DNA of 64,000 nucleotides from an uncultured bacterium (lineage in GTDB: Bacteria; Fidelibacterota; Marinisomatia; Marinisomatales; TCS56), in NCBI GenBank assembly GCA_964628055.1, contig CAZVNL010000001.1, positions 4,114-68,113 of the forward strand. The letters are read 5' to 3'. Below are positions 39,647 through 56,004 of this stretch, piece by piece (the stretch's first letter is position 1; each line of letters begins with the position of its first letter). A program made the translations under genes and the position numbers. The notes below the pieces were generated by a model. That model was not told the DNA's origin. It ran no database searches and worked only from the letters and a program-made list of their open reading frames with translations.

Positions 39647-39651
39647 GATAT

Positions 39652-43560: not shown

Positions 43561-44372
43561 TACGAATTACTCCACTTTGGTTGACGGTGTTCCAGAAAAG
43601 CCACGAGACCCTCCCGGGCGTCATTGGTTGACATGAGGGTTTCCAGATAATATTTCTCCAGATTGGGTAGTTCTTTTTGCAGGGTTTGATGGAGTAGCCA
43701 TCGCGCCGCCCGGACGCCATGGCGCAACGACGAGGCACTCTTGGGTAGGATATTAGTTTGGATCCACTGCTCCACGTCTTGTTCCCTAGTTTGCCGGTTG
43801 TTAAATACCGCCGTGAACAAACCCATTTGTTGACCTTCCTCAGCCGTGATGGTGCGACCGGTGAGAAGAAGGTCCTCGGCGCGAGTTAGTCCTATTTTCA
43901 GAGGTAACAACAAGGAAGCAGGTGGGGGAAACACCCCCAGATTTATCTCCGGTTGACCCATCCTAACAGTGGTGTCGGCGAAAAGAAAATCACACATGAG
44001 GGCTAATTCCATCCCCCCACCCAGGCAGTGACCTGAGACGAGGGCAGCGGTGGGAATTGCCAGTTCCATCAGGGTATAAAAAAGACGATGAAATTGCGAT
44101 AACATGCGACCTACCTGCTCCGGGAGGTGTTCCTGTACACTGGCCCCGAAGGAAAAGTGTTTCCCAGCGCCGGTTAACATGAGCAGTTTGACCTCCGGTC
44201 TCATAGATAGACTCTCCAAATGCTGTTGAAGGGCCTCCATCATTACCCGGTCCAGGACATTGCCTTTAGGGGCATTGAGGGTCAGGCGAACGACCTGGCT
44301 ATCGTAGGAACGCTCCAGCAAAACAGGATTTATTGTATCGGGTTTGGCCTCCATACCTGGCGTTCCCATCAT
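43560..44372 (-). CDS. dch: Enoyl-CoA hydratase, cyclohexa-1,5-diene-1-carbonyl-CoA hydratase candidate
   Basis: 270 aa crotonase (GAGKHFSFGASV, GHCLGGGMELAL). The assignment rests on its position immediately after oah and had in the Thauera-type trio. Confidence 0.65.
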   Translation of the reverse strand: MMGTPGMEAKPDTINPVLLERSYDSQVVRLTLNAPKGNVLDRVMMEALQQHLESLSMRPEVKLLMLTGAGKHFSFGASVQEHLPEQVGRMLSQFHRLFYTLMELAIPTAALVSGHCLGGGMELALMCDFLFADTTVRMGQPEINLGVFPPPASLLLPLKIGLTRAEDLLLTGRTITAEEGQQMGLFTAVFNNRQTREQDVEQWIQTNILPKSASSLRHGVRAARWLLHQTLQKELPNLEKYYLETLMSTNDAREGLVAFLEHRQPKWSNS

Positions 44373-45466
44373 TGTACCTTTGGTAAGATGGTCTCGACGA
44401 GTTCGTCATCCCAGGGATGGCCTTCGGCCAGCATTTTCCGCAATTTGATGAAATCCACTTCTCGGTTCCCTTTAGGACCTTCATTATACGCCCGAAAACC
44501 GGCTTTGGCTTCGGTCATCATGTTCAAGGCCAACCAATCGCGGTTGGTTTGTTGATTGCGATCCCAATGTTCCAATTTTTTCTTTCTCAGGCTGTTCAGC
44601 GTCTTGTTGGTACAATCTGGCATAGTGTAAAGGAGTTTGGTGGCCAGGAAATTTACCGCCTTGTCCAAGGGTTGCAGATCGATGGTTCCTTCCTTGAGCA
44701 GTGTTTTGCCCGCTTCCCTTTCCGCGCCCGATTTGGGCCGGCCATAGACAATTTCACCGGTTTCGTCTAACCAGCGATCGGTGATGACCAACGGATTGCG
44801 TATAAAACGTCCCTTTATCTTTAGCACAGGAACCGCTTGAGTAATTAAGCCATAGCGTAAAGCTTCGTAGGCGCTCCACATTTCGCAGAGGGTGCAACTT
44901 TGCATGGCCCGCTCAATGCCCACGTACAAGTGCAAGAAATCCGTGCTGCCGCCGTCGGGGGCACTCCCGTGTTTAGGACCCGCCTGCCCGAACACTGCCA
45001 GATCACTGGCCACAGAAAAGTCGCAGGCCATGCCGATCTCCTGACCGCCGGCGATACGCATTCCATTCACCCTGCAGATGACGGGCTTATCACAGTGGAG
45101 AATCGCCGTGATCATATCGTTGAAGAGACGCATGTACTGCTTGTATTCCAGGGGCCGCCCAGCATAGTACTCGGCATATTCCTTGGTATTACCCCCCGTG
45201 CAAAAGGCTCGCTCCCCCACACCACTGAAAACCACGGCCACCACCGAGCGATCATTGGAAGCTTGGCGAAAGGCAAGGATAATTTCCTTGACCGCAGCCG
45301 TCGTGTAGGAATTGTACTGGCGAGGGTTATTCAAAAATATCCAGGCATTGTACAAACCATCCACCGGCTGGCTGTCCTGGTCAAGACAGGGCCGTCGTTC
45401 ATAGCGAATCGATTCAAAGGATAAATCCACAAGATTGTGACTGATAAGGTTTTGGTTCATGACCAC
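44369..45466 (-). CDS. oah: 6-oxocyclohex-1-ene-1-carbonyl-CoA hydrolase (ring-cleaving; Oah/BamA type)
   Basis: 365 aa long-form crotonase-superfamily protein (AFCTGGN, AGGQEIGMACDF). The size fits Oah/BamA (~370-380 aa) rather than BadI (~260 aa). Adjacent to had and dch. Confidence 0.75.
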   Translation of the reverse strand: MVMNQNLISHNLVDLSFESIRYERRPCLDQDSQPVDGLYNAWIFLNNPRQYNSYTTAAVKEIILAFRQASNDRSVVAVVFSGVGERAFCTGGNTKEYAEYYAGRPLEYKQYMRLFNDMITAILHCDKPVICRVNGMRIAGGQEIGMACDFSVASDLAVFGQAGPKHGSAPDGGSTDFLHLYVGIERAMQSCTLCEMWSAYEALRYGLITQAVPVLKIKGRFIRNPLVITDRWLDETGEIVYGRPKSGAEREAGKTLLKEGTIDLQPLDKAVNFLATKLLYTMPDCTNKTLNSLRKKKLEHWDRNQQTNRDWLALNMMTEAKAGFRAYNEGPKGNREVDFIKLRKMLAEGHPWDDELVETILPKVQ

Positions 45467-45475: not shown

Positions 45476-46531
45476 TTAGTTAAAATCCGGTTTTAAAATG
45501 ATGCGTTCCTGGAAGGCGTGTTTAAGGACACCTTGAAACGTTTCGTTAATTTCCGACATGGGTTTGAAAGCCGAATAAGGTCGGATTTCTACTTGCCCCC
45601 GGGCGACGAGATCGAGTACCTCTAAATATAATTCTGGCCGACAGCCCCAGGTACCAATTGCCTGGGCATCAAAAGCCATGAGATTGCTCAATCGTAGCTC
45701 TAATTTATCCATTGTAAAGCCAACAATAGATAGCGTTCCGGCAATCCCTAAAAGCGCAAATGCCAGGGTTTGCCCGCCTTTTGTTCCTGACATTTCAAAT
45801 ATTTTCCATCCAAACGGGTCAGCTCCCGACTCACGAATCCATTGTTTTACGCGTTGTTTAACGGCTCGTACTTCCCTATCGGCAGTATTTAAGGTTTGTA
45901 CCGACGATAACGTTGCAACCCGGTCAAGCCGCTGTTGGTCAATGTCAATGGCCAGCACTTTTCCCCCCATGGCACGAGCAATTTGAACGGCATAAATGCC
46001 AATTCCCCCTACACCGATAACGATGGCCACGTCTCCCTCTCCCAAACCACTTTTTTGGATAGCTTGGTAAGGTGTAGAAACTGCATCCGCGATGACGGCT
46101 AATTCGGCAACCTCATAGGCATTCAAAAGGAAATCCGGAATGGGAATTAAAAAACGTGAGGGAACGATGACATGACTGGCAAACCCGCCGTGAAAATCGT
46201 TCCCTGGCATTTGCTGGTGTTGACAAATGTTACTCCGTCCTTGCTGGCATAATCGACATTCCCCACACGGCAGAACCGCCGGGACAATCACGGCCCGATT
46301 AACCAATTCCCCAGGACCTTCCAGCACCCGGCCACTGATTTCGTGCCCTAAAACCAAGGGCAAAGGATGGCGCGTAGGCACCCCATGATGCCAGAAACTC
46401 AAATCCGTATGACAAACGCCGCAACCAGCCACTGCGACCAGGGCGTAGCCCGGTTCCAGGTCAGGTTTCGGTCGAGTCACAAGCTGAAAGGGTTCGTCGC
46501 GAGCCACCATTTCATAGGCGCTTATTTCCAT
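45476..46531 (-). CDS. had: 6-hydroxycyclohex-1-ene-1-carbonyl-CoA dehydrogenase candidate (Zn-dependent ADH family)
   Basis: 351 aa with GVCHTD, GHEISG, the structural-Zn Cys cluster CGECRLC and GVGGIG. Context between a thiolase and oah. Confidence 0.7.
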   Translation of the reverse strand: MEISAYEMVARDEPFQLVTRPKPDLEPGYALVAVAGCGVCHTDLSFWHHGVPTRHPLPLVLGHEISGRVLEGPGELVNRAVIVPAVLPCGECRLCQQGRSNICQHQQMPGNDFHGGFASHVIVPSRFLIPIPDFLLNAYEVAELAVIADAVSTPYQAIQKSGLGEGDVAIVIGVGGIGIYAVQIARAMGGKVLAIDIDQQRLDRVATLSSVQTLNTADREVRAVKQRVKQWIRESGADPFGWKIFEMSGTKGGQTLAFALLGIAGTLSIVGFTMDKLELRLSNLMAFDAQAIGTWGCRPELYLEVLDLVARGQVEIRPYSAFKPMSEINETFQGVLKHAFQERIILKPDFN

Positions 46532-46547: not shown

Positions 46548-47813
46548 TTAAGATGCACCAACTAACGTATTTTCGATGAGTACAGCCGTTCCCTGCCCAC
46601 CTCCAATACATGCGGAGGCGATACCGTAGCGCTCGCCACGGCGCCGTAATTCCAGAGCCAAGGTATGGGTTAACCGGGTTCCTGTGGCCGCCAGGGGATG
46701 CCCAATGGCAATGGACCCTCCATTCACGTTTAATCTTTCCCGATCAAGTCCCAGTTCGCGCTCCACGGCGATGATCTGAGCCCCGAAGGCTTCGTTGATC
46801 TCCCACAGGGCGATATCCGGTACTGCTAACCCCGTAAGTTGAAGCAAATTCTGAATGCTAGGCACGGGACCGATCCCCATGTACTCGGGATCAACTCCTA
46901 CTGAAGCAGAGGCCACAATGCGTGCCAGGGGGGACCGCTCCTGCTGCTTCATAATCTCCTCACTGGCAATGATTACCGCCGCCGCCCCATCGACAATGCC
47001 ACTGGAATTCCCCGCTGTCTGGACGCCGTCCTTCGCAAAAGAAGGACGCAAATTAGCCAGTTGACCCCGATCCGTGGAGCGTACGTACTCATCCCGTTCC
47101 AGGGGTTGCGCGGTGGGGATAGTCTTGAACTTCCGGGAAACCAAACCCTCCCATTCGTGAACGCCCGAAGTTACGGGAATGACTTCCTCTGCTAAAGTAC
47201 CATCGTCCCATTTTCGCTTGGCCCGTTGATGGGATTGAAAGGCATAATCATCCACTTCGGTGCGAGTAATGGAATATTTTTTAGCCAGGTTCTCGGCCGT
47301 CTGTCCCATGGAACAGTTGACGGCTGGATCCAGAAGTCCTTCCCAGAGCATGTCGCCGAAATGAAGCTGTCCTAAACGATAGCCCAGGCGGTTGCCAAAA
47401 GACGTGGTAGGGGCCAGAGTCATGTTCTCCGTCCCCCCTGCCAAGGCCACTTGAGCTTTCCCCAGGACAATGTGTTCCGTGGCCGCAATGATGGCCTCAA
47501 ACCCCGATCCGCAAATGCGCTGTACCATAAGAGCGGGGGTTGTTTGGGGAATGCCCGTGTACAACCCAATATGGCGCGGTAAGTAAATGGCGTCAAAGCC
47601 CGACTGGATGATGTTGGCAAACACTACGTGGTCTATTTGAGCCGATTGCAGGTGTGCCCGACGGATCGCTTCCCGAGAGACGATGATCCCTAAATCGGTG
47701 GGAGAAATTCGTCCCAGAGCCCCGCAAAACTTGCCAAACGGCGTACGAGCCCCTTCCAAGAGATAAACACCTTCGTAACGGGCCCCGAAAATGGCGTGTG
47801 TTTTGTTTTTCAT
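46548..47813 (-). CDS. Acetyl-CoA C-acyltransferase (thiolase)
   Basis: 421 aa with QRICGSGFEAI, NVNGGSIAIGHPLAATG and CIGGGQG. Confidence 0.88.
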   Translation of the reverse strand: MKNKTHAIFGARYEGVYLLEGARTPFGKFCGALGRISPTDLGIIVSREAIRRAHLQSAQIDHVVFANIIQSGFDAIYLPRHIGLYTGIPQTTPALMVQRICGSGFEAIIAATEHIVLGKAQVALAGGTENMTLAPTTSFGNRLGYRLGQLHFGDMLWEGLLDPAVNCSMGQTAENLAKKYSITRTEVDDYAFQSHQRAKRKWDDGTLAEEVIPVTSGVHEWEGLVSRKFKTIPTAQPLERDEYVRSTDRGQLANLRPSFAKDGVQTAGNSSGIVDGAAAVIIASEEIMKQQERSPLARIVASASVGVDPEYMGIGPVPSIQNLLQLTGLAVPDIALWEINEAFGAQIIAVERELGLDRERLNVNGGSIAIGHPLAATGTRLTHTLALELRRRGERYGIASACIGGGQGTAVLIENTLVGAS

Positions 47814-48619
47814 GCTTCTGCTGGCTCCAAAGTTGATTTCGGTACCGCCTGCCAGGCTAAAACGGCAGCCCCAAGGGCGATGATATACTGCGGTTCATCG
47901 GTTACTTCCACGGGGACCCCTAAAGCCTCGGATAACAATATCTTCAAAAAAGGATGATAAGCGATGACCCCACCGCATAAATAGACCGGTCGATCACCGC
48001 GAATAGGCATTTTCCGTATCCGGTTCACGATGGACAGGTAAATACCCCTGGCCATGTCCTCTAAGGGAACCCCGCCAAATTTCCAATTCAATATTTCCGT
48101 TTTGGCAAATACGGTACAAAAACTATTCATGATCCGGGTAGAAGAGGAAGCCTGGGCCAGACGACTCATTTCACTGATCTCCAATTCCGCTTTTTCAGCA
48201 ATTTCAGTGATGAAGGCACCGGTACCGGAAGAACATTTATCGTTCATGTAAAAGTGCTCTACCACCCCCTGGCCATCACATTCGATAATCTTGATATCCT
48301 CTCCCCCAATATCAATGATACACTTTTCCACCGGATGCAGGGTGGTTACCCCAACGGCGGCACAAATGAGCTCCGTCTTCTCCAAGTCCCCGGCGTAGCT
48401 AGTGCGTCCATACCCGGTGGTACAGATCGAGCGAATGGCATAGCGTTGGTTGATCGTTTCGAGAATCTCTTCGAACTGTTCCCGTCGTCGGCTTAAGGTG
48501 GGAATCACCGATCGGTAGACCGCCTCTTTACGGTCGTCAATTACGACAAACTTAGTATAGGAAGAACCCAGGTCAATTCCTAAGAATCCCGTTGATCTCA
48601 TAGAGGAAAGGTGCGGCAT
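47810..48619 (-). CDS. BcrAD/BadFG/HgdC-family ATPase (radical-enzyme activase), third copy in the operon
   Basis: 269 aa with an ASKHA fold (GIDLGSSYTK, DIGGEDIKI). Both cluster-bridging Cys contexts are present (NDKCSSGTG, SFCTVFA). Size fits homodimeric HgdC-type activators. Confidence 0.8.
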   Translation of the reverse strand: MPHLSSMRSTGFLGIDLGSSYTKFVVIDDRKEAVYRSVIPTLSRRREQFEEILETINQRYAIRSICTTGYGRTSYAGDLEKTELICAAVGVTTLHPVEKCIIDIGGEDIKIIECDGQGVVEHFYMNDKCSSGTGAFITEIAEKAELEISEMSRLAQASSSTRIMNSFCTVFAKTEILNWKFGGVPLEDMARGIYLSIVNRIRKMPIRGDRPVYLCGGVIAYHPFLKILLSEALGVPVEVTDEPQYIIALGAAVLAWQAVPKSTLEPAEA

Positions 48620-49582
48620 TCAATCTCCTTCACCACGGAACGGTTGATCCAGGAGTTGGATTAACGTGGTGATCGTTTGATTCAGGGGAGTAGCGATGCC
48701 GTGTTTCTTACCGTATTCTACGATTTTGCCATTCAAGTAATTGATTTCCGTGGGGTGTTCGTTATCGAGGTCCACCAGCATGGAGGGACGATGGCCGCCT
48801 CCGAGATCCAAATAATTCAGGCAGTGATCCATAAAGTCGTCTGAATAATGGATACCCTCAGCCGTGGCCACCTGTAAGGCCTCCTGAAGGATATTAATCA
48901 CCAAATGGCGTCCTGACGTGTGTCCCATAATTTCTTGCATGGTTTTCCCGGCGATGGCGCATACGGGGGCCAAACTGGCGTTCAACATGGCTTTTTCCCA
49001 GACATGTTTGGCAAGCTGGTTGGGGATTTTTGTAGTGAGACCAGTCTGGTTTAACAGAGCAACAACTCGTTCAGCAAGGGACGTACCCCGGGAATCCAAA
49101 GGAGCCAGATAATTGGGAGGATTGAAAAAGCCCACATTCACGGTGGAACGGTCCAACATGTTTCCGGCATAATTAATTACCATGCGTAGGGTTCGATGAG
49201 TCCCAAACACGCGAGCCAGCTCCCGCTCGTTATCGATTCCGTTTTGGGCACTCAGGAGAAAAAAGTCCCGCTCTCGATATTCCGCCAATTCTTTAACCAC
49301 CGTTGTTAAATAAGGGGCTTTTACCGCAATGGTCACTAAGTCCAGCGGACGGGTCATCATCTCAGAGACTGAAGTGCAGGTCTCGTGCAGGTAGACCTGT
49401 TTTTGAATGGCATGAACCAGTTGAATCCCATTCTTTTGCATGGTGGTGATTTTCAAGTGGTCAATATCACAGGCAACCACGGTTGCACCCGCCTCTATTA
49501 AATGGACGGCCAAAACACATCCCACCGGCCCTAAACCGACAACGCCAATCGTTAAGGAGGCTCTATGTGCAGGTACTACCAC
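48620..49582 (-). CDS. Ketopantoate reductase (ApbA/PanE) family NAD(P)H oxidoreductase
   Basis: 320 aa with N-terminal GVVGLGPVG Rossmann, VKA, QNG, W.K...N and SML.D....TE family landmarks. Confidence 0.75.
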   Translation of the reverse strand: MVVPAHRASLTIGVVGLGPVGCVLAVHLIEAGATVVACDIDHLKITTMQKNGIQLVHAIQKQVYLHETCTSVSEMMTRPLDLVTIAVKAPYLTTVVKELAEYRERDFFLLSAQNGIDNERELARVFGTHRTLRMVINYAGNMLDRSTVNVGFFNPPNYLAPLDSRGTSLAERVVALLNQTGLTTKIPNQLAKHVWEKAMLNASLAPVCAIAGKTMQEIMGHTSGRHLVINILQEALQVATAEGIHYSDDFMDHCLNYLDLGGGHRPSMLVDLDNEHPTEINYLNGKIVEYGKKHGIATPLNQTITTLIQLLDQPFRGEGD

Positions 49583-49586
49583 GGCC

Positions 49587-50810
49587 TTAAACGCTTTCTC
49601 TCTCCTGGGCGGGGTGAATCGTTTTCAACTGTTCGATAAAGGTTTCCAAGCGCGTTCGGGTCTGCCCATCGGAGAAGAAGCGCAAGTCATTCAAATCCCC
49701 GTCGATGGTTAAAGTGGGAATTCCCGTTTTTTCCTGCAACCGGGCGGGTAGACCAAAGCGGTTGTTAGCGTTATTGAAACAGGTTTTCGAATCGTGAAAA
49801 ATGACCCCATCTACGTGGAAATCGTCAACCATCCGGCAAAGCATCTGCAACTTGGCATATTCGCCACGGTTGATAAATATCTGGGTATAGGCGTTGGCCA
49901 TGGATTCCAATGGTTTCGAAGGATCGAACTGGTCGAAGACCCAACTATTACAATAGGTCGATGCAACCACGGCGGCCTGGTTATGGGCGCACGTTTCGGA
50001 GAGCATTCGCAAACGACCCCACACAGGCATACCATCCCAATAAAGGCGAACCTCTTCTCCCGGAACACGGGCAAATTTAATCTTCACGCCCATAGTAACT
50101 TCTTTCAAAACCGACTGATAAAACTCTAAACAAACCTGGGTGCCCCGCATTACCACAATGGGGGCCATGAGAATGCAACCGTCGAAAAACGTCAAGGGTG
50201 TGGGTTTATGACGGGCCGCAGACAGCACTTGTTTCCACAGTTGCGAGGCTTTATAACTAAGCTGCACTGTCTCTACGAGACGTTCTTCGGTAAGGGCAGT
50301 ACCGAGTATTTCCTCTCCTGTTTTTAGCAAGGTCTCCAATTGCTTGGTTACGTAGTCAATATCGCCGGGAGTAACCTCTTCCAGGTGGCGGGGTGGGAAT
50401 ATCCCCACCACGGGGCAACCAAACTCGCGACCGAAAAAGTTGAACCACTCAGCCACTTCCCGGCATTGGTTCGTATTAAACACAATGAGGTTCGGTTTGG
50501 GCACGGTGTCCAGACCATAGGCTTTCGCCAGGGGCGTTTCACCCGTGAGATAGGCCCCAATATCCGCCGTTAGGTAGGAACAGACCTCACTGGCAAACCC
50601 TGCCTGGTGCGCCCGGGGAATGTACCTTTCTGCCGTACGGGAGGCGCCTAATAGGGCGCCATGATTTTCAGGAAAGTAGACTTGAAACCCTAAAGCCCGG
50701 AGTAATTCTGCCGGCCCGGCACTGGTGCACCATGCTACGGGGGAGACCAATCCCCGATAGTAATCTTGCATCAAATCCTTTAATAATTCCTGGGAACGTA
50801 AGCGAACCAA
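49587..50810 (-). CDS. Orphan BcrB/BadE-like paralogue (2-hydroxyacyl-CoA dehydratase / benzoyl-CoA reductase D-component family)
   Basis: 407 aa, collinear with the operon's own BcrB (54694-56004). Shared blocks: EVCSYL/DVCSYV, RHKPTPL/RHRPSPI, RGTQVCLEFYQ/RGTRVCVEYYQ, PLESMA, DGVIF..SKTC/DGFVV..IKSC and the terminal DL.D.R. Three Cys positions are shared. Confidence 0.75.
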   Translation of the reverse strand: MVRLRSQELLKDLMQDYYRGLVSPVAWCTSAGPAELLRALGFQVYFPENHGALLGASRTAERYIPRAHQAGFASEVCSYLTADIGAYLTGETPLAKAYGLDTVPKPNLIVFNTNQCREVAEWFNFFGREFGCPVVGIFPPRHLEEVTPGDIDYVTKQLETLLKTGEEILGTALTEERLVETVQLSYKASQLWKQVLSAARHKPTPLTFFDGCILMAPIVVMRGTQVCLEFYQSVLKEVTMGVKIKFARVPGEEVRLYWDGMPVWGRLRMLSETCAHNQAAVVASTYCNSWVFDQFDPSKPLESMANAYTQIFINRGEYAKLQMLCRMVDDFHVDGVIFHDSKTCFNNANNRFGLPARLQEKTGIPTLTIDGDLNDLRFFSDGQTRTRLETFIEQLKTIHPAQERESV

Positions 50811-50812
50811 AG

Positions 50813-52531
50813 TTACTCCAAATGGATAATGTAAACGGGATCAGGCAAAGGTTCTTCCAGGCCATAGAGATTTTCGATATTGGCTTTAAAAACTTTCCCC
50901 ACCACATTAGGCGCTAATTTCATGGAAGGGGTTAGTTCCTCGTTCTCGATGCTCAATTCGTAGTCGATGAGCATAGCAGCTTTCAGCCGGGCGTACTTTT
51001 CGTCGATGGCATGGTTGATCTCCCCCAGGCAATTCTTCAAACACTGGGCAAACTCCTCCATATGCCGGGGACATTTACACCCTACTTTTAAGCGGGATTC
51101 GTCGGTGACTTTGGAAAACATGGTTTTATTGGGAAAAAGTAGGGTCACGGGATAATCCCTCCCACTCCCGGCCACGAAGGCATAGGAAAGGTAAGTGCAG
51201 TCCTTGATAATCAAATTTTCTATTTCGGTGGGGATCACTTTTTCGGCATTACTCAACTTGAAGATGCGATCTTTCCGCGAGATCAAACACAAGCCGGTGG
51301 AGGTGAGGGCGCCCACATCCCCGGTGGCAAACCAACCATCGGGGGTCAACACAGCCTCAGTGGCTTCCGGATTGCGAAAATACCCTGCCATAACATTGGG
51401 GCCTTTCACCAAGATTTCGCCGTCCTCCTTAAGGGCAATTGTTACGCCCGGGATGGGTTTGCCAACGATACCCGCCTGGCGCGGCAAACTAGGCTCCGTC
51501 ACCGTGCAACAGGGTGATGTTTCCGTCAATCCCCATCCTTCATAGACGGGGATGTTCTGTGCTTCGAACATATTGGAGATGGACTTGGGCAAAGGGGCCG
51601 CTGCTGTAAAGATAAATCGCAACTCGTCATGAAAAATGACTTTTTCCAGTTCTGGATCCTGGAGCATGCGGGTGGTGATTTCCTGGTAAACACGAGGTAC
51701 GCTAAAGAAAACAGTGGGTCGTACCTGTTTCCAATTTTGTAGGAGCAAGTCAATATCCTTGCCAAACCCGTGTTCCAGGGAGAGGACGGCACCGTTCACC
51801 AAAGCGGCATACTTCTCGAAAATGCCACCAAAACTGTGGTGCCAGGGTAAATAGGAGAGAAAGCGGTCTTTGGTACTCAACTGCCAGAGGACCTTCATGG
51901 CGGCTTGTTGTGAGAGGATATTTCTGTGGGTGAGTTGCACCAATTTGGGTTTTCCCATGGTTCCCGAGGTGTACATCATGAGTGTCACTGTATCAGAGGA
52001 TACTTCCGCACCTGCGATGAGCTCCCCGTTAGGGTCGTGTAGAAGGAGTTGGGAAAAAGGAACCACATTAGCAGCCGCACTTTCCAGAGGGTCGAAGTGA
52101 ACAATCCGTCGATAGGTCTCCGGATGGGGTATTTTAGCAAACTGTTCCTCGTCGGCGACCACCACAAAACGGGGGTCACAAAACTCTATTAACGCGGCAG
52201 CCCGGTTAGGAGGATAGCCGGCAAAGATGGGAACAGCAACACCCCCCATGGCCATGATGGCCAACTCCAGTTCCAACATTTCCTGCCGATTCCGGGAGAG
52301 CAATGCCACCCGGTCTCCATCTTGAAATCCCACCTCCTGGAAGTAGCCCTGGATGGCGGTAACATCTTTTTGAAACTGACTCCAGGACAAGGGTTGAAAG
52401 CGATTATTGCGTACTTCCTGGTAAATGGCGTGGTCCCGAAGGCGATCTGCATTGGTATTGAGCATGGTAGCCAAGTTAGAGGCGTAATCAGGGAGTGAGA
52501 GTTCACTTTCCAGGATCGGATCAGGTTTCAT
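50813..52531 (-). CDS. AMP-forming acyl-CoA ligase, ACSL/FadD15 (COG1022)-like
   Basis: 572 aa with YTSGTMGKPKLVQLTHRNI, GWGLTETS and GWFATGDVG...ISRKDRIFKLSNAEKVIPTEIE. The last block is the long-chain-type linker rather than the BadA/BclA benzoate-CoA ligase pattern. Confidence 0.75.
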   Translation of the reverse strand: MKPDPILESELSLPDYASNLATMLNTNADRLRDHAIYQEVRNNRFQPLSWSQFQKDVTAIQGYFQEVGFQDGDRVALLSRNRQEMLELELAIMAMGGVAVPIFAGYPPNRAAALIEFCDPRFVVVADEEQFAKIPHPETYRRIVHFDPLESAAANVVPFSQLLLHDPNGELIAGAEVSSDTVTLMMYTSGTMGKPKLVQLTHRNILSQQAAMKVLWQLSTKDRFLSYLPWHHSFGGIFEKYAALVNGAVLSLEHGFGKDIDLLLQNWKQVRPTVFFSVPRVYQEITTRMLQDPELEKVIFHDELRFIFTAAAPLPKSISNMFEAQNIPVYEGWGLTETSPCCTVTEPSLPRQAGIVGKPIPGVTIALKEDGEILVKGPNVMAGYFRNPEATEAVLTPDGWFATGDVGALTSTGLCLISRKDRIFKLSNAEKVIPTEIENLIIKDCTYLSYAFVAGSGRDYPVTLLFPNKTMFSKVTDESRLKVGCKCPRHMEEFAQCLKNCLGEINHAIDEKYARLKAAMLIDYELSIENEELTPSMKLAPNVVGKVFKANIENLYGLEEPLPDPVYIIHLE

Positions 52532-53355
52532 GCATTTGCCTCCAGGAGTTTAAAATGGCGATAACCGCCCCACAGAGCAGCCCCAATGGCGCCGGCGGCA
52601 TATCCATTTTCAGCGGTAAAAACCTCGAGTCCCAAGTTGCGTTCGTGGATCAGTTCGCGTATGGCCACCAGGAGTCCTTCGTCCTGGGCTAGGCCGCCGG
52701 TTAACGCCACAGGGGATTCGGCCTTTAATTTGCTTAGTAATTTAATGACTCGACGGGCAATAGAAAGATGAATCCCTTTAATAATATCGGGGGTGGGAAT
52801 TCCCTGAGAGACCATGTTAATCACATCGGTCTCAGCCAAGACAGCACAAATACCGCTGGTTTTAGCCGGGTTGGTGCTCTGGAGTGACAGGGGACCTACC
52901 TCGTCAATGGTAACTCCCAGATAGCGAGTGATATTTTCTAAAAATTGTCCCGAACCGGAAGCGCACTGTCCCGTCATGGTATAATTTTTCACCCGAGCCC
53001 CCACATCCAGGGACATAACCCGGCAGAACAGGGCCCCTAAATCCACCACCGTTCGCACTTCGGGATGATAGTGATAAGCCCCCCGGGTATGGGTCGTCAT
53101 GCTGTAAAAGTGGCCCCGTTTCTTGCGCACCAATTCTCCCTCCCCGGTGGAGGCCACATACACCAAGTCATTGCAGTCGAGGGCGTGTTGTTTCAGCACA
53201 TAGGCAACGGTTTTATCGATAACTTCAGTGGGATTGCGTTTGCGGATTTTCTCATTTACCAAGGTCAAGACCTGAGGAGGGTCAGCATACTCTACCAGCG
53301 CCACTTTAATAAAGCTGCTGCCTACGTCAATACCCATGGTGAGAGGTGTATTCAT
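52528..53355 (-). CDS. bcrD: Benzoyl-CoA reductase ATPase subunit D (BcrD/BadG-like)
   Basis: 275 aa with an ASKHA fold (GIDVGSSFIK, DLGALFCRV) and Cys contexts TGQCASGSG and GICAVLA. Fourth position of a C-B-A-D block. Confidence 0.8.
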   Translation of the reverse strand: MNTPLTMGIDVGSSFIKVALVEYADPPQVLTLVNEKIRKRNPTEVIDKTVAYVLKQHALDCNDLVYVASTGEGELVRKKRGHFYSMTTHTRGAYHYHPEVRTVVDLGALFCRVMSLDVGARVKNYTMTGQCASGSGQFLENITRYLGVTIDEVGPLSLQSTNPAKTSGICAVLAETDVINMVSQGIPTPDIIKGIHLSIARRVIKLLSKLKAESPVALTGGLAQDEGLLVAIRELIHERNLGLEVFTAENGYAAGAIGAALWGGYRHFKLLEANA

Positions 53356-54644
53356 TGACGTTGGGCACTAAACAGGGCGGCTCCCAAAGCGCCCATAAAA
53401 ATTGAATCTGGATGAATATTGATAGTCACTTTTCCATAACTCTGGGTCACCATCTGGCTCACGTATTTTACGACCGCGGGATTGCGGGCCACCCCACCCG
53501 TAAAAGTGAATTCGTTCCGCACACCCCCAGAGCGGGCCAGAAGAGCAAAGGCTCGTTGGACAATTGCCTGGTGTAAGCCAGCCAAAATGTTTTCCTTTTT
53601 CTCCCCCAAATTTAAATATTCACGTAATTCGGCTCCGGCGAAAACCGTGCAGGTACTGCAAATATTGGTCTCGTAATCGGCGTTCAAAGCGATGGGACCC
53701 AATTCACTGACGCTAACGTTCATTTCGTCGGCGATATAACCTAAGTACCGTCCACACCCAGCGGCGCAACGATCATTCATCTGAAAACTGGTTACCATAC
53801 CGTGTTGGTCAACCTGGATGGCCTTTGTATCCTGGCCGCCTATATCTAAAACGGTGCGCGTTTGGGGAAAATTGGCGTGGGCCCCCATGGCGTGGCATAA
53901 AATTTCCGACTTGATATGCTTTTGTTCGAAGGGCAGGAGCTGGCGACCGTAGCCGGTGCCGATGTAATCCGCCGGCTCCAACGAGAATTGGGCCACCGAT
54001 TTGAGGAATTTACGTAATGGTTCGCGGGCGGAAGCGAAGGTCGCGGGTAATGAATCCAGGGCCGCCTCCATCAACTCCTGAAAATTAAAATCAATGACCT
54101 GATTTTCCACAGGTGTGATGGAGCGATCGTAGAGGGCCACCAGTTGATCGAATAGGGCCTTGTCCTCGTCCTGGATTTTCTGCAGGTAAATACTGCTGAA
54201 AAGGTCACGGAAAAATTCCGAAGTCGTGGTGACTTTGCCATTAAAGAAGCGGTCTCGACATTCTTCCTGGATCTCCACCGCGAGTCGCTTCAGTAAGGTT
54301 TTAATATCCTTTCGGTGAGAGGGAGAGGCCACGGTTTTCAAGTTCGTTTCCATGGTATCAATGAGCAGACGGAACCGGGCCAGGAACTGGAGATAATTAA
54401 AGCGATTTTTCAAGGGGGGCAGCATTTTATCCCAGGAGTTTTTTCCCTTCCCTTTGGCATTTAATTCACGATGGAGAAAGAAAAACCGGGAGTTGAACTC
54501 TGCTTCCATGCGGGCAATGTCAGCCGCAACCTCATAGTTGGAACGCGTGTTAGTAATGCCACGACCAATAATGGTCCCATATTGATCGATAAAGACGGCC
54601 TTGGAGGTCGTGGAGCCCAGGTCAATGCCTAAAAATACTTTCAT
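53352..54644 (-). CDS. bcrA: Benzoyl-CoA reductase ATPase subunit A (BcrA/BadF-like)
   Basis: ~430 aa from MKVFLGIDLGSTTSK (the longer 457-aa ORF would overlap bcrB). A ~180-aa helical insertion splits the ASKHA fold, as in the long BCR ATPase subunit. NDRCAAGCG and CSTCTVFA are present. Confidence 0.8.
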   Translation of the reverse strand: MKVFLGIDLGSTTSKAVFIDQYGTIIGRGITNTRSNYEVAADIARMEAEFNSRFFFLHRELNAKGKGKNSWDKMLPPLKNRFNYLQFLARFRLLIDTMETNLKTVASPSHRKDIKTLLKRLAVEIQEECRDRFFNGKVTTTSEFFRDLFSSIYLQKIQDEDKALFDQLVALYDRSITPVENQVIDFNFQELMEAALDSLPATFASAREPLRKFLKSVAQFSLEPADYIGTGYGRQLLPFEQKHIKSEILCHAMGAHANFPQTRTVLDIGGQDTKAIQVDQHGMVTSFQMNDRCAAGCGRYLGYIADEMNVSVSELGPIALNADYETNICSTCTVFAGAELREYLNLGEKKENILAGLHQAIVQRAFALLARSGGVRNEFTFTGGVARNPAVVKYVSQMVTQSYGKVTINIHPDSIFMGALGAALFSAQRQ

Positions 54645-54693
54645 GGCTGGTGGGGCTACCCTGGCCCTTCTCTTAAAATGGTCGGTTTTTCTC

Positions 54694-56004
54694 TCATGCC
54701 AAAACCTCATCGGACAGAAGTTCATTGGACGTGGGTTGACTCTGGCGCTGTTCGAGCATCTGGAAAAACGAGTCCAGGCGGTTTTTGATGTTGGAATAGG
54801 AATAATAACGGGGATCGACTAAATCAGTCTCGATAAAACCAACCGGTATTTGGAGTCGCTCTTCCAATTCACGCATGATGAACAATTGTCCGGCCGAAAA
54901 AGAATTACAACTCTTGATGGAATTCACCACAAATCCGTCAGCATGATAGCGTTTAATGAGCCCTTCAATGAGGTCAATCCGCTGGGGTAGGTTGCGATTG
55001 GTGTAACACCCCAGACAATAGTACGCCATACTCTCCAGGGGTTGGGTGGCAGAGTGGCGAAACCCATCGTCATAGATACCGCCCACCCGGGTATAAGTAG
55101 ACCCCACAAATACAGCGCCTAAATCGTAAAAGATTTTCCAAAAATTGCGAAAGTGCGTCCAGTTAGGAGGTCCTTCTATGACCAGACGAAACTTTTCTTC
55201 CCCAAGGGAACCTTCGGGTGTGATGGGACCCAACTTATTCGTGATGCGAAATTGAATTTCTTTAAGCAATTCCTGGTAGTACTCTACACAAACCCTGGTA
55301 CCCCGAAAGGCGGTAAAAATGGGACCAATGTAATATACACCACCAAAATAGGCGTCAATGGGTGACGGACGATGCCGGGCGGAATCGAAAACTTGAACTA
55401 AAAGATCCTCGGCTTGGGCGCTGAGGTCCATTTTCTCAACCAATAAATCACGGTCTAAACGCTTCCCGCTTACCTTCTGAAAAATGGGAATTACTTCGGT
55501 TTCCAATTGATTCACAATGTAACGAACCATGGACGGTTCTATCTGTTCCCCCTCCTGGTAAGGGACATGGAGCATGGCAATCTCGGTTTGCGGATAGAAT
55601 TGTTTCAGATTTTCAAACCACTTCATGAAGACAAAGCAGCCCGTGTAACTCAATAGTAAAATATCTGGTGGGGGAAGCTGCTGGCCGGTGGGTCCGATAT
55701 TCCCCTGAAGCATCATCCCTATATCACATTTAACATAGGAACACACGTCTTCCGGGTAACCCATGTCCTCGGCTTCCCGGATGTACCCGTGAGATTTTTT
55801 CCGCATTCCCGATTGCAAGGCGTTGATTTCGGGGTAAACAGGTAACATGTCAAAGGCCCCGATCAACTCCGTGAGATTCCCGGGGACGAAGGTGTAAACG
55901 ACTTTCTTTCCCGTTTCCCGCACCTGGGACAATTCCAGGAAATGCTGTGCCAGCATTTGCTTTTGCTTGAGCATACTGGTCTCTTTTTGTACCGTGGTAT
56001 TCAT
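54694..56004 (-). CDS. bcrB: Benzoyl-CoA reductase subunit B (BcrB/BadE-like)
   Basis: 436 aa of the 2-hydroxyacyl-CoA dehydratase/BCR family, with conserved Cys in DVCSYV, YTGCF and IKSCN. Second position of the C-B-A-D block. Confidence 0.8.
   Translation of the reverse strand: MNTTVQKETSMLKQKQMLAQHFLELSQVRETGKKVVYTFVPGNLTELIGAFDMLPVYPEINALQSGMRKKSHGYIREAEDMGYPEDVCSYVKCDIGMMLQGNIGPTGQQLPPPDILLLSYTGCFVFMKWFENLKQFYPQTEIAMLHVPYQEGEQIEPSMVRYIVNQLETEVIPIFQKVSGKRLDRDLLVEKMDLSAQAEDLLVQVFDSARHRPSPIDAYFGGVYYIGPIFTAFRGTRVCVEYYQELLKEIQFRITNKLGPITPEGSLGEEKFRLVIEGPPNWTHFRNFWKIFYDLGAVFVGSTYTRVGGIYDDGFRHSATQPLESMAYYCLGCYTNRNLPQRIDLIEGLIKRYHADGFVVNSIKSCNSFSAGQLFIMRELEERLQIPVGFIETDLVDPRYYSYSNIKNRLDSFFQMLEQRQSQPTSNELLSDEVLA

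Follow-up and report, generated by a model that had tools for sequence, protein, structure and literature searches.

A strongly conserved ligase/HGD-D/KPR-like/activase gene module in an anaerobic benzoyl-CoA operon and its possible role in aryllactate dehydration

Four tightly packed genes, encoding an acyl-CoA ligase (LIG), an HGD-D protein (HGDx), a KPR-like dehydrogenase and an activase (ACT), lie at positions 47810–52531 on the minus strand of the 64-kb window (the whole stretch of DNA analyzed), inside an anaerobic benzoyl-CoA operon. The quartet appears to be a strongly conserved and undescribed module, as a first-pass annotation of this DNA had called it, since no paper on it was found in the literature. 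Recurrence of the same gene set in dozens of species-level genomes excludes a chance arrangement. We tentatively propose that the module may provide a ligase-dependent (R)-2-hydroxyacyl-CoA dehydratase route that lacks a beta subunit and leads from arylpyruvate via aryllactate, aryllactyl-CoA and cinnamoyl/4-coumaroyl-CoA to (4-hydroxy)benzoyl-CoA. Judging from gene neighbourhoods, 2-oxo/2-hydroxy acids derived from Phe or Tyr are its most likely substrates.

The quartet and its flanking genes

Gene content, family assignments, residue conservation, synteny, fusions and selection were observed directly. LIG (50813–52531; 572 aa), an ACSL/FadD11-like AMP-forming acyl-CoA ligase, is followed by HGDx (49587–50810; 407 aa, TTG start), the KPR-like dehydrogenase (48620–49582; 320 aa, GTG start) and ACT (47810–48619; 269 aa), an HgdC/HadI-type ATP-dependent activase (archerase). 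The quartet sits between bcrD (52528–53355) and the thiolase gene Thl1 (46548–47813), and the junctions from bcrD through Thl1 are −4, +2, +4, 0 and −4 nt, exactly as first described for a quartet placed between bcrCBAD and lower-pathway genes.

The remaining genes of the operon are likewise on the minus strand. Those preceding the quartet encode a MarR regulator (57217–57663) and the Thauera-type class I BCR subunits BcrC (about 56061–57227) and BcrB (54694–56004), both above the NCBIfam equivalog cutoffs (models TIGR02263, 427 bits, and TIGR02260, 616 bits), as well as BcrA (53352–54725; 460 bits) and BcrD (282 bits), each with the expected family as best match. On the other side, Thl1, a 421-aa thiolase with Thiolase_N and Thiolase_C domains that overlaps ACT by 4 nt, probably catalyzes the thiolytic step of side-chain beta-oxidation. 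It is followed by Had (45476–46531) and Oah (44369–45466), both over the equivalog cutoffs (TIGR03201, 408 bits, and TIGR03200, 572 bits), and by Dch (43560–44372; best match TIGR03189, 226 bits). Had, Oah and Dch hydrate, oxidize and open the dearomatized ring. The hydroxyacyl-CoA dehydrogenase/enoyl-CoA hydratase fusion HadECH660 (41578–43560), SDR (40840–41577) and Thl2 (39652–40794), all with NCBIfam and Pfam matches, are probably beta-oxidation genes used both in shortening the side chain and in the pimelyl-CoA lower pathway. Then come the genes of a 4-hydroxybenzoyl-CoA reductase (4-HBCR)-type Mo enzyme, HcrC (39182–39703), HcrA (36900–39185; expected family best) and HcrB (35974–36903; four-Cys loop with spacing x15, x7, x8), for which TIGR03194 was by far the top match (848 bits), and those of the Mo-enzyme maturation proteins XdhC (34827–35921) and MocA (34174–34797). 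Judged by these matches, the flanks of the quartet are genuine benzoyl-CoA pathway genes.

Properties of the four proteins

HGDx carries the Pfam domain HGD-D (PF06050), and its residues 34–396 align with the operon's own BcrB at 28% identity. The cluster cysteines C77, C116 and C344 are kept as in BcrB and are invariant across the family, which confirmed the alignment and the three Cys positions noted in the first-pass annotation. The label "BcrB paralogue" used there was overstated, as HGDx scored higher against the NCBIfam model of HadB (185 bits) than against those of BcrB (132), BzdO (96), double-cubane proteins (67) and HadC (21). Against the PDB, the HGDx family profile gave 213 bits for HadB, 151 for MbdO, 124 for BzdO, 41 for DCCP and at most 25 for beta subunits. 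The nearest known protein is HadB, the catalytic alpha subunit of 2-hydroxyisocaproyl-CoA dehydratase, to which the AF2 model of HGDx (pLDDT 87) showed a TM of 0.88–0.90 in Foldseek. In the NJ tree, HGDx formed its own clade outside the BcrB clade and branched together with the radiation that includes HadB before any catalytic subunit of a BCR joined. These comparisons indicate that HGDx is an alpha/catalytic-type subunit and not a recent BcrB copy.

Further invariant residues of HGDx are C28, C287, Tyr79 and Glu48, the last of which corresponds to Glu55 of HadB and Glu65 of BzdO. Tyr79 is the counterpart of BzdO Tyr97, a thioester hydrogen-bond donor (PMC11971306). The invariant Ala31-Gly32 takes the place of Val-Phe in HadB and of Ala45-Trp46 in BzdO, a site in contact with the ring (PMC11971306), which suggests a deeper acyl pocket in HGDx. 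C28 and C287, to which the dehydratase mechanism assigns no function and whose positions carry V, I, L, S and T or P in sister alpha-type families, would most simply be pocket residues. Altogether, 92 residues including all cluster ligands are invariant among HGDx sequences of 50–100% identity, and HGDx, the KPR-like gene and ACT are under strong purifying selection (dN/dS 0.045, 0.081 and 0.071).

LIG contains the Pfam domains AMP-binding and AMP-binding_C_3 and reaches no NCBIfam equivalog cutoff. Ligases encoded beside HGDx share 59–74% identity in close loci and 40–49% in Alphaproteobacteria and Gemmatimonadaceae, and many lineages have a non-homologous ADP-forming acyl-CoA synthetase (ACD) in place of the AMP-forming LIG, one or the other being present in 41 of the 47 loci. 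This replacement argues that the substrate is a CoA ester made from the free acid, and we propose LIG as the activator of a 2-hydroxy (or 2-oxo) acid. The KPR-like protein, with ApbA and ApbA_C domains, scored 189 bits against TIGR00745 (cutoff 141), keeps equivalents of PanE N98, K176, N180, S244 and E256, and counts the KPR-fold D-mandelate dehydrogenase 3wfi among its PDB relatives. It is fused to HGDx in genome P0241 and to an HGDx paralogue in L038 and P0260, so that fusions of KPR with HGD-D arose twice, independently. We propose it as the NAD(P)H-dependent reductase of arylpyruvate to (R)-aryllactate. ACT belongs to the BcrAD_BadFG family (TIGR00241, 174 bits; cutoff 125) and matched HgdC (1hux, 137 bits) and HadI (4eht, 130 bits) best in the PDB. 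As had been stated, it retains both cluster-bridging Cys contexts of HgdC (MNDKCssGTG and sfCTVFAktE) and is the third activase-type ATPase of the operon. It adjoins HGDx in 44 of the 47 loci and is presumably a homodimer, because it is encoded by a single gene.

Distribution and genomic neighbourhoods

A relative is present in at least 387 species-level genomes, and the quartet is spread over many phyla, where it accompanies either of two unrelated BCR types or no BCR. Such conservation, together with the invariant cysteines and the position outside the BcrB clade, sustains the first-pass view of a module. Moreover, that view held that HGDx has no second BcrC/HgdA-type partner; no further HGD-D gene was present across the 64-kb window, and no beta-type partner gene was found in about 90 loci. 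Only in Gemmatimonadaceae does a second HGD-D gene lie by the module, and this HGDx paralogue has lost all three cluster cysteines.

In Alphaproteobacteria, the operon has the order LIG-KPR-HadECH660-Thl1-SDR-HcrCAB-HGDx-ACT, and its Thl1, HadECH660 and SDR share 47–48%, 40–41% and 50% identity with their window orthologues. No ring-cleavage or ring-reduction genes were found near it, and by its predicted functions it is exactly the enzyme set needed to convert 4-hydroxyphenylpyruvate to benzoyl-CoA. A 4-HBCR-type enzyme shares an operon with the module in Alphaproteobacteria, KSB1, Marinimicrobia and the window, and an Hcr-type enzyme directly adjoins HGDx-ACT in Alphaproteobacteria and genome L092. 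Furthermore, indolepyruvate:ferredoxin oxidoreductase (IorAB, at NCBIfam cutoffs) and a PaaK-like ligase adjoin the module in Geobacter, Desulfatibacillum-type genomes and Kiloniellaceae; these copies are mutually only 35–54% identical, and their association with the module therefore arose independently.

A candidate pathway and its alternatives

The reaction, the substrate, the order of ligase and reductase and the oligomeric state were inferred from these data. The KPR-like dehydrogenase would reduce phenylpyruvate or 4-hydroxyphenylpyruvate to (R)-aryllactate with NAD(P)H, and LIG, or elsewhere the ADP-forming synthetase, would convert aryllactate to aryllactyl-CoA. Since this CoA ester would not be recycled, the step would call for a ligase in place of the CoA-transferase used by clostridia. 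HGDx, with a three-Cys [4Fe-4S] cluster, an open iron site and no beta subunit, and most simply a homodimer, would receive one ATP-energized electron from homodimeric ACT and take off the alpha-hydroxyl via a ketyl radical to give cinnamoyl-CoA or 4-coumaroyl-CoA. Hydratase, dehydrogenase and thiolase would release acetyl-CoA and leave benzoyl-CoA or 4-hydroxybenzoyl-CoA, the latter to be dehydroxylated by Hcr before BCR, Dch, Had and Oah act. The conversion of arylpyruvate to benzoyl-CoA and acetyl-CoA would be redox-neutral overall.

We favour this route because the catalytic-type HGDx is nearest to dehydratase alpha subunits and ACT is closest to HgdC/HadI, because the KPR-like enzyme keeps the catalytic Asn/Lys/Ser/Glu of PanE and fuses with HGD-D, and because Geobacter and Holophagaceae have thiolase, ECH and 3HCDH genes immediately 3′ of the module. 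The alphaproteobacterial operon, complete without ring reduction, the lack of a BadA/BclA-type benzoate-CoA ligase gene in the window operon, the pocket suggested by Ala31-Gly32 and the strong purifying selection also argue for it. An aromatic substrate is indicated by the IorAB/PaaK-like and 4-HBCR neighbours and by aromatic-pathway markers in 39 of the 47 loci. The comparative evidence thus favours the ligase-dependent 2-oxo to 2-hydroxy to enoyl-CoA route with a homomeric dehydratase that the first-pass annotation had put forward.

Several points count against it. To our knowledge, every characterized 2-hydroxyacyl-CoA dehydratase is an alpha/beta heterodimer that obtains its substrate from a CoA-transferase, whereas both beta subunit and CoA-transferase are absent here. 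The L092 operon consists only of [KPR-HGDx]-ACT-Mo-enzyme-XdhC-MocA, and neither a ligase gene nor beta-oxidation genes were found within 10 kb, an arrangement not expected from the simple pathway model. The KPR–HGDx fusion better suits consecutive steps, whereas the model has the ligase in between; the ligase may act first, on the 2-oxo acid. C28 and C287 without a dehydratase role, the 8 of 47 loci with no aromatic marker nearby, and the absence of a conserved aminotransferase from the module clusters also speak against the route.

Some of these observations would suit a new simplified ATP-coupled reductase or dehydroxylase, formed by HGDx and ACT and acting on an aromatic or alicyclic CoA ester with the KPR-like and 4-HBCR-type enzymes; for example, a hydroxylated aryl-CoA would be reduced and its keto tautomer then reduced by the KPR-like enzyme. 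The one-plus-one genes resemble DCCP and DCCP-R, one D-type subunit and one ATPase (PMC7317905), the TM values of HGDx to the BCR catalytic subunits BzdO (0.89) and MbdO (0.86) are as high as that to HadB, and C28 and C287 align with, or directly next to, two distal double-cubane ligands in BzdN (C36, C263; PMC11971306) and in DCCP. The reduced L092 operon fits as well. Holophagaceae and Gemmatimonadaceae have Had-like and Dch-like genes on the flanks of HGDx-ACT and lack a BCR within 10 kb, which may indicate that HGDx itself produces a dienoyl-CoA, a further point against the dehydratase route. The two HGD-D and two ATPase genes of Gemmatimonadaceae give a BCR-like count. We nevertheless consider such a reductase unlikely: sequence scores and tree group HGDx with dehydratase alpha subunits and not with BCR subunits, no ferredoxin or other stoichiometric electron-donor gene is conserved with the module, the KPR-like enzyme retains the residues with which 2-oxoacid reductases bind the carboxylate and carry out catalysis, HGDx lacks the sixth double-cubane ligand, the second HGD-D protein of Gemmatimonadaceae has no cluster cysteines, and the window already holds a complete BCR and 4-HBCR.

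The same dehydratase chemistry on a non-aromatic (R)-2-hydroxyacyl-CoA is rather improbable. It would agree with HadB being closest to HGDx, with the public annotation of Geobacter members as 2-hydroxyglutaryl/2-hydroxyacyl-CoA dehydratase, with the resemblance of the Geobacter downstream set to generic thiolase, crotonase and 3-hydroxybutyryl-CoA dehydrogenase, and with the loci devoid of an aromatic marker. ADP-forming synthetases often run in the ATP-forming direction, and the variant with such a synthetase might even work backwards, turning glutaconyl-CoA into 2-oxoglutarate and gaining ATP. However, no glutaconyl-CoA decarboxylase or glutaryl-CoA dehydrogenase gene occurs in any Pfam-annotated context of the module, the AMP-forming ligase of the window is ill suited to reversal, and the 4-HBCR and IorAB/PaaK neighbours and the placement in benzoyl-CoA operons in many phyla would be left unexplained.

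The first-pass annotation had also considered that the quartet supplies accessory or alternative subunits retuning the class I BCR for substituted benzoyl-CoAs, for example with HGDx replacing BcrB beside BcrC. The location of the quartet right behind bcrD, which its first gene overlaps by 4 nt, and the full-length identity to BcrB speak for it, but its distribution contradicts this very improbable reading, which we rejected: the quartet is unchanged beside two class-I-like BCRs, one 65–82% and the other about 30% identical to the Bcr proteins of the window, and 29 of 30 distant loci have it with no BCR at all, among them those of Geobacter, whose BCR is of class II (PMC1924859). In addition, the quartet has its own activase, and the KPR and ligase genes would be given no role. 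A set of decaying or functionless copies of BCR and dehydratase genes, for which only the missing partner subunit speaks, has a negligible probability and is refuted by the low dN/dS, the invariant residues and the many genomes with relatives.

Of the earlier interpretation, the dehydratase route is thus favoured and the BCR accessory role is not supported, and to say that the module fits neither paradigm was too strong, since the module represents a variation on the dehydratase paradigm. Beyond that interpretation, the substrate is probably aromatic (an aryllactate), and the neighbouring "lower pathway" genes and the 4-HBCR probably belong to the same route. The quartet, probably with Thl1, HadECH660, SDR and Hcr, would constitute a peripheral pathway feeding aromatic 2-oxo and 2-hydroxy acids of Phe and Tyr origin into the benzoyl-CoA pathway.

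Operon context of the four genes

The four genes under study lie within a single long and tightly packed operon on the minus strand of the window, running from MarR to MocA. The operon starts with the MarR gene (57217-57663) and the benzoyl-CoA reductase (BCR) genes BcrC (about 56061-57227), BcrB (54694-56004), BcrA (53352-54725), and BcrD (52528-53355), which are followed by the quartet, namely the genes of a 572-aa ACSL-like AMP-forming ligase (LIG, 50813-52531), a 407-aa HGD-D protein (HGDx, 49587-50810), a 320-aa dehydrogenase resembling ketopantoate reductase (KPR-like, 48620-49582), and a 269-aa HgdC-type activase (ACT, 47810-48619). Further downstream are the thiolase gene Thl1 (46548-47813), the ring hydration, oxidation, and opening genes Had (45476-46531), Oah (44369-45466), and Dch (43560-44372), HadECH660, which encodes a 660-aa hydroxyacyl-CoA dehydrogenase/enoyl-CoA hydratase fusion (41578-43560), SDR (40840-41577), a second thiolase gene Thl2 (39652-40794), and HcrC, HcrA, and HcrB (35974-39703), with XdhC and MocA next in order. 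The gene coordinates gave junctions of -4, +2, +4, 0, and -4 nt around the quartet, exactly as in the first-pass annotation, whose family assignments for the four proteins also agreed with our profile results. A splitting of the operon by internal promoters or terminators was rejected, as the counts of such sites were not above shuffled expectation.

The quartet is flanked by true benzoyl-CoA pathway genes. Of these, BcrB, BcrC, Had, and Oah exceeded the NCBIfam equivalog cutoffs, and the expected family was the clear top match for BcrA, BcrD, Dch, and HcrA, the last of which scored 848 bits against TIGR03194 (cutoff 994) and led its other matches by 310 bits. From residue 118, HcrB (35974-36903) carries a four-cysteine insertion, C-x15-C-x7-C-x8-C, which also occurs in the HcrB homologues of KSB1 and Marinimicrobia and, lengthened by an insertion of 5 residues, in those of Emcibacter. 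We take this to be the extra [4Fe-4S] loop of the FAD subunit that is typical of, and diagnostic for, 4-hydroxybenzoyl-CoA reductase (4-HBCR). A BadA/BclA-type benzoate-CoA ligase gene is absent from the operon, consistent with benzoyl-CoA reaching the pathway as a ready-made thioester.

The longest BcrC reading frame starts with GTG at 57278 (56061-57278) and overlaps the MarR gene by 62 nt. Since the homologues of BcrC measure about 390 aa, translation probably starts further in, as at 57227 in the first-pass annotation, with which the overlap is 11 nt. Elsewhere in the window, a 475-aa thiolase-like protein (Thiolase_C_1) and an overlapping 238-aa ORF are encoded on the plus strand (11940-13957), a pair that recalls SCP-x-type thiolase pairs for aromatic/steroid side chains and is unlinked to the operon. 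Collagen-like triple-helix repeats occur in a small protein encoded at 4478-5050, within the stretch 4478-5613, and the window ends in a partial ORF with a run of nine aspartates (63104-64000).

Family placement and conserved residues of HGDx

HGDx scored 211 bits against PF06050 and was 28% identical to the BcrB of its own operon and 19% identical, over a partial alignment, to BcrC. It stayed under the equivalog cutoffs of the models for HadB (NF052455, 185 bits vs. 750), BcrB (TIGR02260, 132 vs. 486), BzdO (TIGR03191, 96 vs. 449), and the double-cubane cluster protein (DCCP; NF040772, 67 vs. 350), and reached only 21 bits, again under the cutoff, with the NCBIfam model of HadC. The HGDx family profile, when compared with PDB entries, scored HadB at 213, MbdO at 151, BzdO at 124, DCCP at 41, and beta subunits at no more than 25. 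Its AlphaFold2 model (pLDDT 87, pTM 0.88) gave Foldseek TM-scores of 0.88-0.90 to HadB, 0.89 to BzdO, 0.86 to MbdO, 0.72-0.77 to DCCP, and about 0.70 to beta subunits. In a neighbor-joining tree of 118 superfamily representatives, built without bootstrap and leaving out HgdA, FldB, and LcdA, HGDx and its relatives formed a clade of about 20 leaves, which joined the radiation that contains HadB at a node covering 104 of the 118 leaves and met BcrB, MbdO, and a divergent BCR subunit only at 113 leaves; the 407-aa protein did not fall inside a BcrB clade of this tree.

Judged on these comparisons, HGDx belongs with the catalytic, alpha-type subunits of the BCR/2-hydroxyacyl-CoA dehydratase family and is no close relative of BcrB. 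Its earlier description as a BcrB paralogue implies too close a kinship, as the protein scores higher against HadB. The dN/dS values against the nearest relative, locus L016, were 0.045 for HGDx, 0.081 for KPR, and 0.071 for ACT, so these genes are under strong purifying selection and not decaying. A recent or decaying duplicate of BcrB was rejected on the identity, the clade, and the dN/dS of HGDx.

Across 80 family members (50-100% identical), 92 residues were invariant or nearly so. The three cysteines noticed in the first reading, C77, C116, and C344, are invariant in this set and align with the [4Fe-4S] cluster ligands of HadB and BzdO; no fourth cysteine ligand was present in the alignment. 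Also invariant is E48 in the motif FPENHGA, which aligns with the catalytic Glu55 in the YPENQAA motif of HadB and with BzdO Glu65, and Ser30 takes the position of BzdO Ser44. The three ligands correspond to C95, C128, and C380 of BzdO, and Tyr79 corresponds to BzdO Tyr97, the hydrogen-bond donor to the thioester oxygen (PMC11971306). With the cluster cysteines, E48, Ser30, and Tyr79 all among the conserved residues, those that bind the CoA thioester beside the open iron site are therefore kept in HGDx. BzdO His131 is replaced by Val. HGDx has an invariant Ala31-Gly32 at the place of Val-Phe in HadB and of Ala45-Trp46, a ring contact, in BzdO (PMC11971306). This may faintly hint at a deeper pocket that would take an aryl group separated from the thioester by two carbons.

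Two further cysteines, C28 and C287, bring the invariant ones to five. In a structure-aware alignment, C287 fell in the same column as BzdN C263 and a DCCP ligand, and C28 lay one column off BzdN C36 and the matching DCCP cysteine; these BzdN columns hold two of the three distal-half ligands of the [8Fe-9S] double cubane (PMC11971306, PMC7317905). HGDx has Asn314/Arg315 where BzdN has its sixth ligand, C293; sister alpha-type families have V, I, L, S and T or P in the C28/C287 columns; and a paralogue devoid of the three canonical ligands still retains C287. For these reasons, together with the low DCCP score, C28 and C287 are best treated as unexplained pocket residues and not as proof of a second cluster. 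The assignment of HGDx as a double-cubane protein was rejected on the missing sixth ligand and the NF040772 score.

Partner genes, distribution, and neighborhoods

The KPR-like protein contains ApbA and ApbA_C domains and, like the PanE/ApbA family with its KPR-fold D-mandelate dehydrogenase (PDB 3wfi), scores above the TIGR00745 subfamily cutoff (189 bits vs. 141) and has the catalytic residues, with N104, K197, N201, S267, and E279 aligned to PanE N98, K176, N180, S244, and E256. In contrast to PanE, it has Ala in place of Asn184, it scored under the cutoff of every equivalog model for a true 2-dehydropantoate 2-reductase (best NF005091, 147 bits vs. 252), and its genomic context is aromatic catabolism and not pantothenate synthesis. 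Lactic-acid-bacterial PanE is known to act as a 2-hydroxyacid dehydrogenase, and KPR-like is likewise a plausible 2-oxoacid reductase. A further difference from PanE is its fusion to HGD-D proteins. A KPR domain is fused N-terminally to a genuine five-cysteine HGDx in protein P0241 (L092:10001-12187), and to a cluster-less HGDx paralogue in Gemmatimonadaceae (790 aa at L038:6790-9162; P0260; P0246). KPR-like and HGDx thus appear to be coupled functionally and perhaps also physically.

ACT scored 174 bits against TIGR00241 (cutoff 125), had HgdC and HadI as its top PDB matches, and retains both cluster-bridging cysteine motifs; as the product of a single gene it is presumably homodimeric. No CoA-transferase gene was found in the operon or the related loci, where either the AMP-forming ACSL-like ligase or an ADP-forming acyl-CoA synthetase (ACD) is present instead. 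The two fill the same role in different loci by non-homologous replacement; therefore, the conserved function is the conversion of a free acid to its CoA ester, and the substrate of HGDx is fixed as such an ester.

Within the 64-kb window there is no other HGD-D, KPR, IorAB, PaaK, or ACD gene, so the first reading was right that the 407-aa protein has no second D-type partner. Among about 90 loci, no beta-type gene was found adjacent to HGDx apart from the BCR's own subunits and the cluster-less paralogue of Gemmatimonadaceae, a second HGD-D gene whose product has lost all three cluster cysteines (C77S, C116G, and C344T). This paralogue, 34-41% identical and keeping C287 and Glu48, has its own divergent activase gene and lies about 2-3 kb upstream of HGDx in Gemmatimonadaceae and others (L037-L041, L044, L045, L047, L050, L052, L062, L084, and L086); with HGDx and ACT included, two D-type and two ATPase genes are present, as many as in a BCR. 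The simplest reading is that HGDx forms a homodimer, with a degenerate heterodimer in the Gemmatimonadaceae lineage only.

A word-indexed search returned more than 7000 superfamily matches, the best 120 of which were 62-92% identical and came from genomes named Fidelibacterota/Marinimicrobia, Zixibacteria, or KSB1, and a pattern-limited scan with one genome per GTDB species found an HGDx relative in at least 387 genomes. For high-GC loci, the gene content was taken from tblastn and Pfam-annotated gene calls. In the close group (≥58% identity), all 17 loci with full flanks contained a class-I-like BCR, LIG, HGDx, KPR, ACT, an optional thiolase, and then Had, Oah, and Dch, so that the quartet recurs as the same set in related genomes. 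In some Marinimicrobia the BCR is of a divergent type (about 30% identical, with short ATPases, under the Bcr/Bzd cutoffs), and the quartet is unchanged. In the distant group (50-57% identity), a BCR was nearby in only 1 of 30 loci, and the HGDx-ACT pair persisted. The suggestion of the first-pass annotation that the four proteins are accessory subunits retuning the BCR was rejected on this distribution, because the quartet stays the same beside the divergent BCR and the module occurs without any BCR in 29 of the 30 distant loci.

The divergent four-gene set replaces BcrCBAD at L004:3887-8226 and also in L005, L006, L012-L014, and L036; it scores 235 bits with the BcrC model and 210 with the BcrB model, has ATPases of 267-290 aa, and is followed by an 81-aa ORF without a family match. 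This set may represent a third BCR subtype.

The gene neighborhoods differ among lineages. The alphaproteobacteria Emcibacter and Paremcibacter have one operon, LIG-KPR-HadECH660-Thl1-SDR-HcrC-HcrA-HcrB-HGDx-ACT, followed by unrelated genes. In Geobacter (G. argillaceus, G. hydrogenophilus, Geotalea daltonii FRC-32, and strain M21), a sigma-54 regulator is followed by ACT, HGDx, an ACD of about 700 aa, thiolase, enoyl-CoA hydratase (ECH), 3-hydroxyacyl-CoA dehydrogenase (HCDH), a PaaK-like ligase, IorA, and IorB, the last two scoring at NCBIfam cutoffs. Desulfatibacillum-type genomes contain Dch-like, HadECH, Had-like, IorA, IorB, PaaK, KPR, ACT, HGDx, ACD, and thiolase genes; their Ior/PaaK association is independent, as the proteins are only 35-49% identical to the Geobacter copies. 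The order is Had-like, Dch-like, ACT, HGDx, ACD, thiolase, ECH, HCDH, KPR, and thiolase in Holophagaceae, and HcrA, thiolase, ECH, SDR, ECH, the KPR-HGDx′ fusion, ACT′, HGDx, ACT, LIG, and Had-like in Gemmatimonadaceae (the primes marking the paralogue and its activase). Among the 47 loci whose flanks extended for at least 5 kb in both directions, ACT neighbored HGDx in 44, LIG or ACD in 41, KPR and thiolase in 38 each, and any aromatic-pathway marker in 39. In FRC-32, the thiolase-ECH-HCDH triplet beside HGDx is duplicated about 12 kb upstream (L089:1548-4811 and 13467-16730), with the ECH and HCDH copies 98-99% and the thiolase copies 82% identical.

Proposed route, alternatives, and implications

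In clostridial 2-hydroxyacyl-CoA dehydratase pathways, a 2-oxoacid reductase, CoA activation, and an ATP-primed radical dehydration lead to an enoyl-CoA. We propose, as the most likely mechanism, an analogous aryl-lactate route, in which KPR-like would reduce an arylpyruvate to the (R)-aryllactate, LIG or ACD would convert this to aryllactyl-CoA, and HGDx/ACT would carry out the ATP-primed radical dehydration to cinnamoyl-CoA or 4-coumaroyl-CoA. The enoyl-CoA would then be hydrated, oxidized, and thiolytically cleaved to (4-hydroxy)benzoyl-CoA and acetyl-CoA; the reaction, the substrate, the order of steps, and the oligomeric state are all deduced from gene content and homology. A ligase must take the place of a transferase here because CoA would not be recycled when the enoyl-CoA is oxidized and cleaved rather than reduced and released. 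The recurrent neighbors, namely arylpyruvate-specific IorAB with PaaK, 4-HBCR, and ring-reduction genes, point to aryl-lactates derived from Phe/Tyr, and the alphaproteobacterial operon contains exactly the proposed enzyme set and nothing for ring reduction. That operon contains orthologues (40-50% identity) of the window's HadECH660, SDR, and Thl1, and some of what looks like a lower pathway in the window probably serves side-chain shortening. The window also encodes, at 5979-8159, 22482-23993, 2572-4365, and 26130-27614, a DPP-IV/S9 peptidase, an M17 leucyl aminopeptidase, and T9SS-tailed proteins, and the sorting-tail domains found in it are Por_Secre_tail, FlgD_ig, and PEGA, which suggests a protein-degrading organism of the FCB group; the peptidases and T9SS-tagged proteins are in line with a proteolytic lifestyle and are counted as support for the route.

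The module was compared with HadBC and HadI (PDB 3o3m), FldBC and FldI with FldA (phenyllactate dehydratase), HgdAB and HgdC, and LcdAB and LcdC of amino-acid-fermenting Clostridia and Fusobacteria. It shares with them the HGD-D fold, the three-cysteine [4Fe-4S] cluster with an open iron site and conserved glutamate, an activase of its own of the HgdC/HadI type, a 2-oxoacid reductase encoded nearby in the cluster, and a proposed enoyl-CoA product passed to acyl-CoA enzymes; HadB is the top match in both sequence and structure, yet only about 26-30% identical to HGDx. However, those enzymes are obligate alpha/beta heterodimers, whereas the module has no beta subunit gene; it has an ATP-dependent CoA ligase (AMP- or ADP-forming) where they have a CoA-transferase (GctAB, HadA, FldA, or Pct), and a fusable reductase of the ketopantoate-reductase family where theirs is of the D-2-hydroxyacid dehydrogenase family. 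HGDx also has the two extra invariant cysteines, and the module would belong to an oxidative route to benzoyl-CoA in respiring, syntrophic, and uncultured bacteria rather than to a reductive Stickland-type branch. The module thus seems to work like a 2-hydroxyacyl-CoA dehydratase system that misses three features, the beta subunit, the CoA-transferase, and equivalog-level similarity. To our knowledge, every BCR/2-hydroxyacyl-CoA dehydratase family member with published biochemistry has a heterodimeric catalytic module, the orphan double-cubane protein excepted.

The module is neither a class I BCR nor a DCCP. With the BCR catalytic subunits BcrB, BzdO (PDB 8s02), and MbdO (PDB 9g87), HGDx shares the superfamily, the fold, the cluster cysteines, the Glu and Tyr near the thioester, and ATP-driven electron injection by a BcrAD-family ATPase (PMC11971306), but it is only 21-28% identical to them, has no BcrC/BzdN-type partner, and occurs independently of BCR, with one D-type and one ATPase gene against two different subunits of each kind. 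DCCP and its reductase (PDB 6eno and 7yyl; E. coli YjiM/YjiL) likewise comprise one HGD-D and one activase gene, and the DCCP homodimer is served by a homodimeric ATPase (PMC7317905), with which the gene arrangement of the module is compatible. Unlike DCCP, HGDx has five cysteines and not the 7-Cys motif, its TM-score to DCCP is lower, and on the substrate side it keeps the Glu, Ser, and Tyr found in alpha subunits that bind CoA esters.

Three observations do not fit a dehydratase. C28 and C287 are invariant and lie at or beside double-cubane ligand columns; Had-like and Dch-like genes flank HGDx in lineages without a nearby BCR; and the L092 operon (GCA_054682455.1) holds only the KPR-HGDx fusion, ACT, a Mo-enzyme, XdhC, and MocA. 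The alpha subunit of this Mo-hydroxylase (L092:13019-18157) is closest to 4-hydroxybenzoyl-CoA reductase (733 bits), and its FAD subunit is a 291-aa XdhB-like protein without the four-Cys loop. These points leave room for a reading that we consider unlikely, in which HGDx/ACT is an ATP-coupled reductase or dehydroxylase of a new kind, working with the Hcr enzyme. In a specific form that we regard as improbable, HGDx/ACT with the sometimes fused KPR-like would not be a dehydratase and would add a third functional class to the ATP-driven "archerase" enzymes, one in which a minimal one-plus-one system performs radical reduction or dehydroxylation of an aromatic or alicyclic CoA ester together with 4-HBCR, with C28/C287 as extra cluster ligands or H-atom donors; such an enzyme could supply the missing dearomatizing or pre-dearomatizing step in Holophagaceae and Gemmatimonadaceae, which have Had and Dch and no recognizable BCR nearby. 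A non-aromatic 2-hydroxyacid as the substrate is similarly doubtful; no Gcd or glutaryl-CoA dehydrogenase neighbors of HGDx were found in the annotated loci, which speaks against a 2-hydroxyglutarate route, retained only as a minor alternative. The idea that HGDx/ACT, driven by ATP, donates electrons to a loop-less Hcr was rejected, since the alphaproteobacterial HcrB has the loop by pairwise alignment and only L092 is without it, and a pure electron-relay role is unlikely because the thioester-binding residues are kept.

We found no description of the module in the literature, nor is there any mention of it in the G. bemidjiensis genome paper. Geobacter FRC-32 was reported to be without BCR-like proteins (Butler et al., 2007; PMC1924859), so the HGDx family was overlooked there. 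For a sulfate reducer that degrades benzene, a 2026 paper postulates a pathway from phenylpyruvate via phenyllactyl-CoA and cinnamoyl-CoA to benzoyl-CoA, with the key dehydration step given to "a yet unassigned dehydratase" (PMC13416013).

On the comparative data, the module is widespread, strongly conserved, and mechanistically unusual in being, by prediction, beta-less, ligase-dependent, and KPR-coupled. A large conserved clade appears to work without a beta subunit, with its own activase, a ligase instead of a transferase, and a fusable KPR-family reductase, which would redefine the minimal unit of this radical chemistry. The cultured carriers Geotalea daltonii FRC-32, Geobacter sp. M21, G. 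hydrogenophilus, and G. argillaceus allow direct testing of the aryl-lactate route. If true, it would provide a redox-neutral path from Phe/Tyr to benzoyl-CoA that needs no high-potential electron acceptor. It would also explain the complete benzoyl-CoA and 4-HBCR operons in apparently proteolytic uncultured Marinimicrobia/Fidelibacterota, KSB1, Zixibacteria, and Ignavibacteriales MAGs, where the substrates of the operon would be protein-derived aromatic amino acids and not pollutants, which would change the reading of metagenomic "aromatic degradation" markers.
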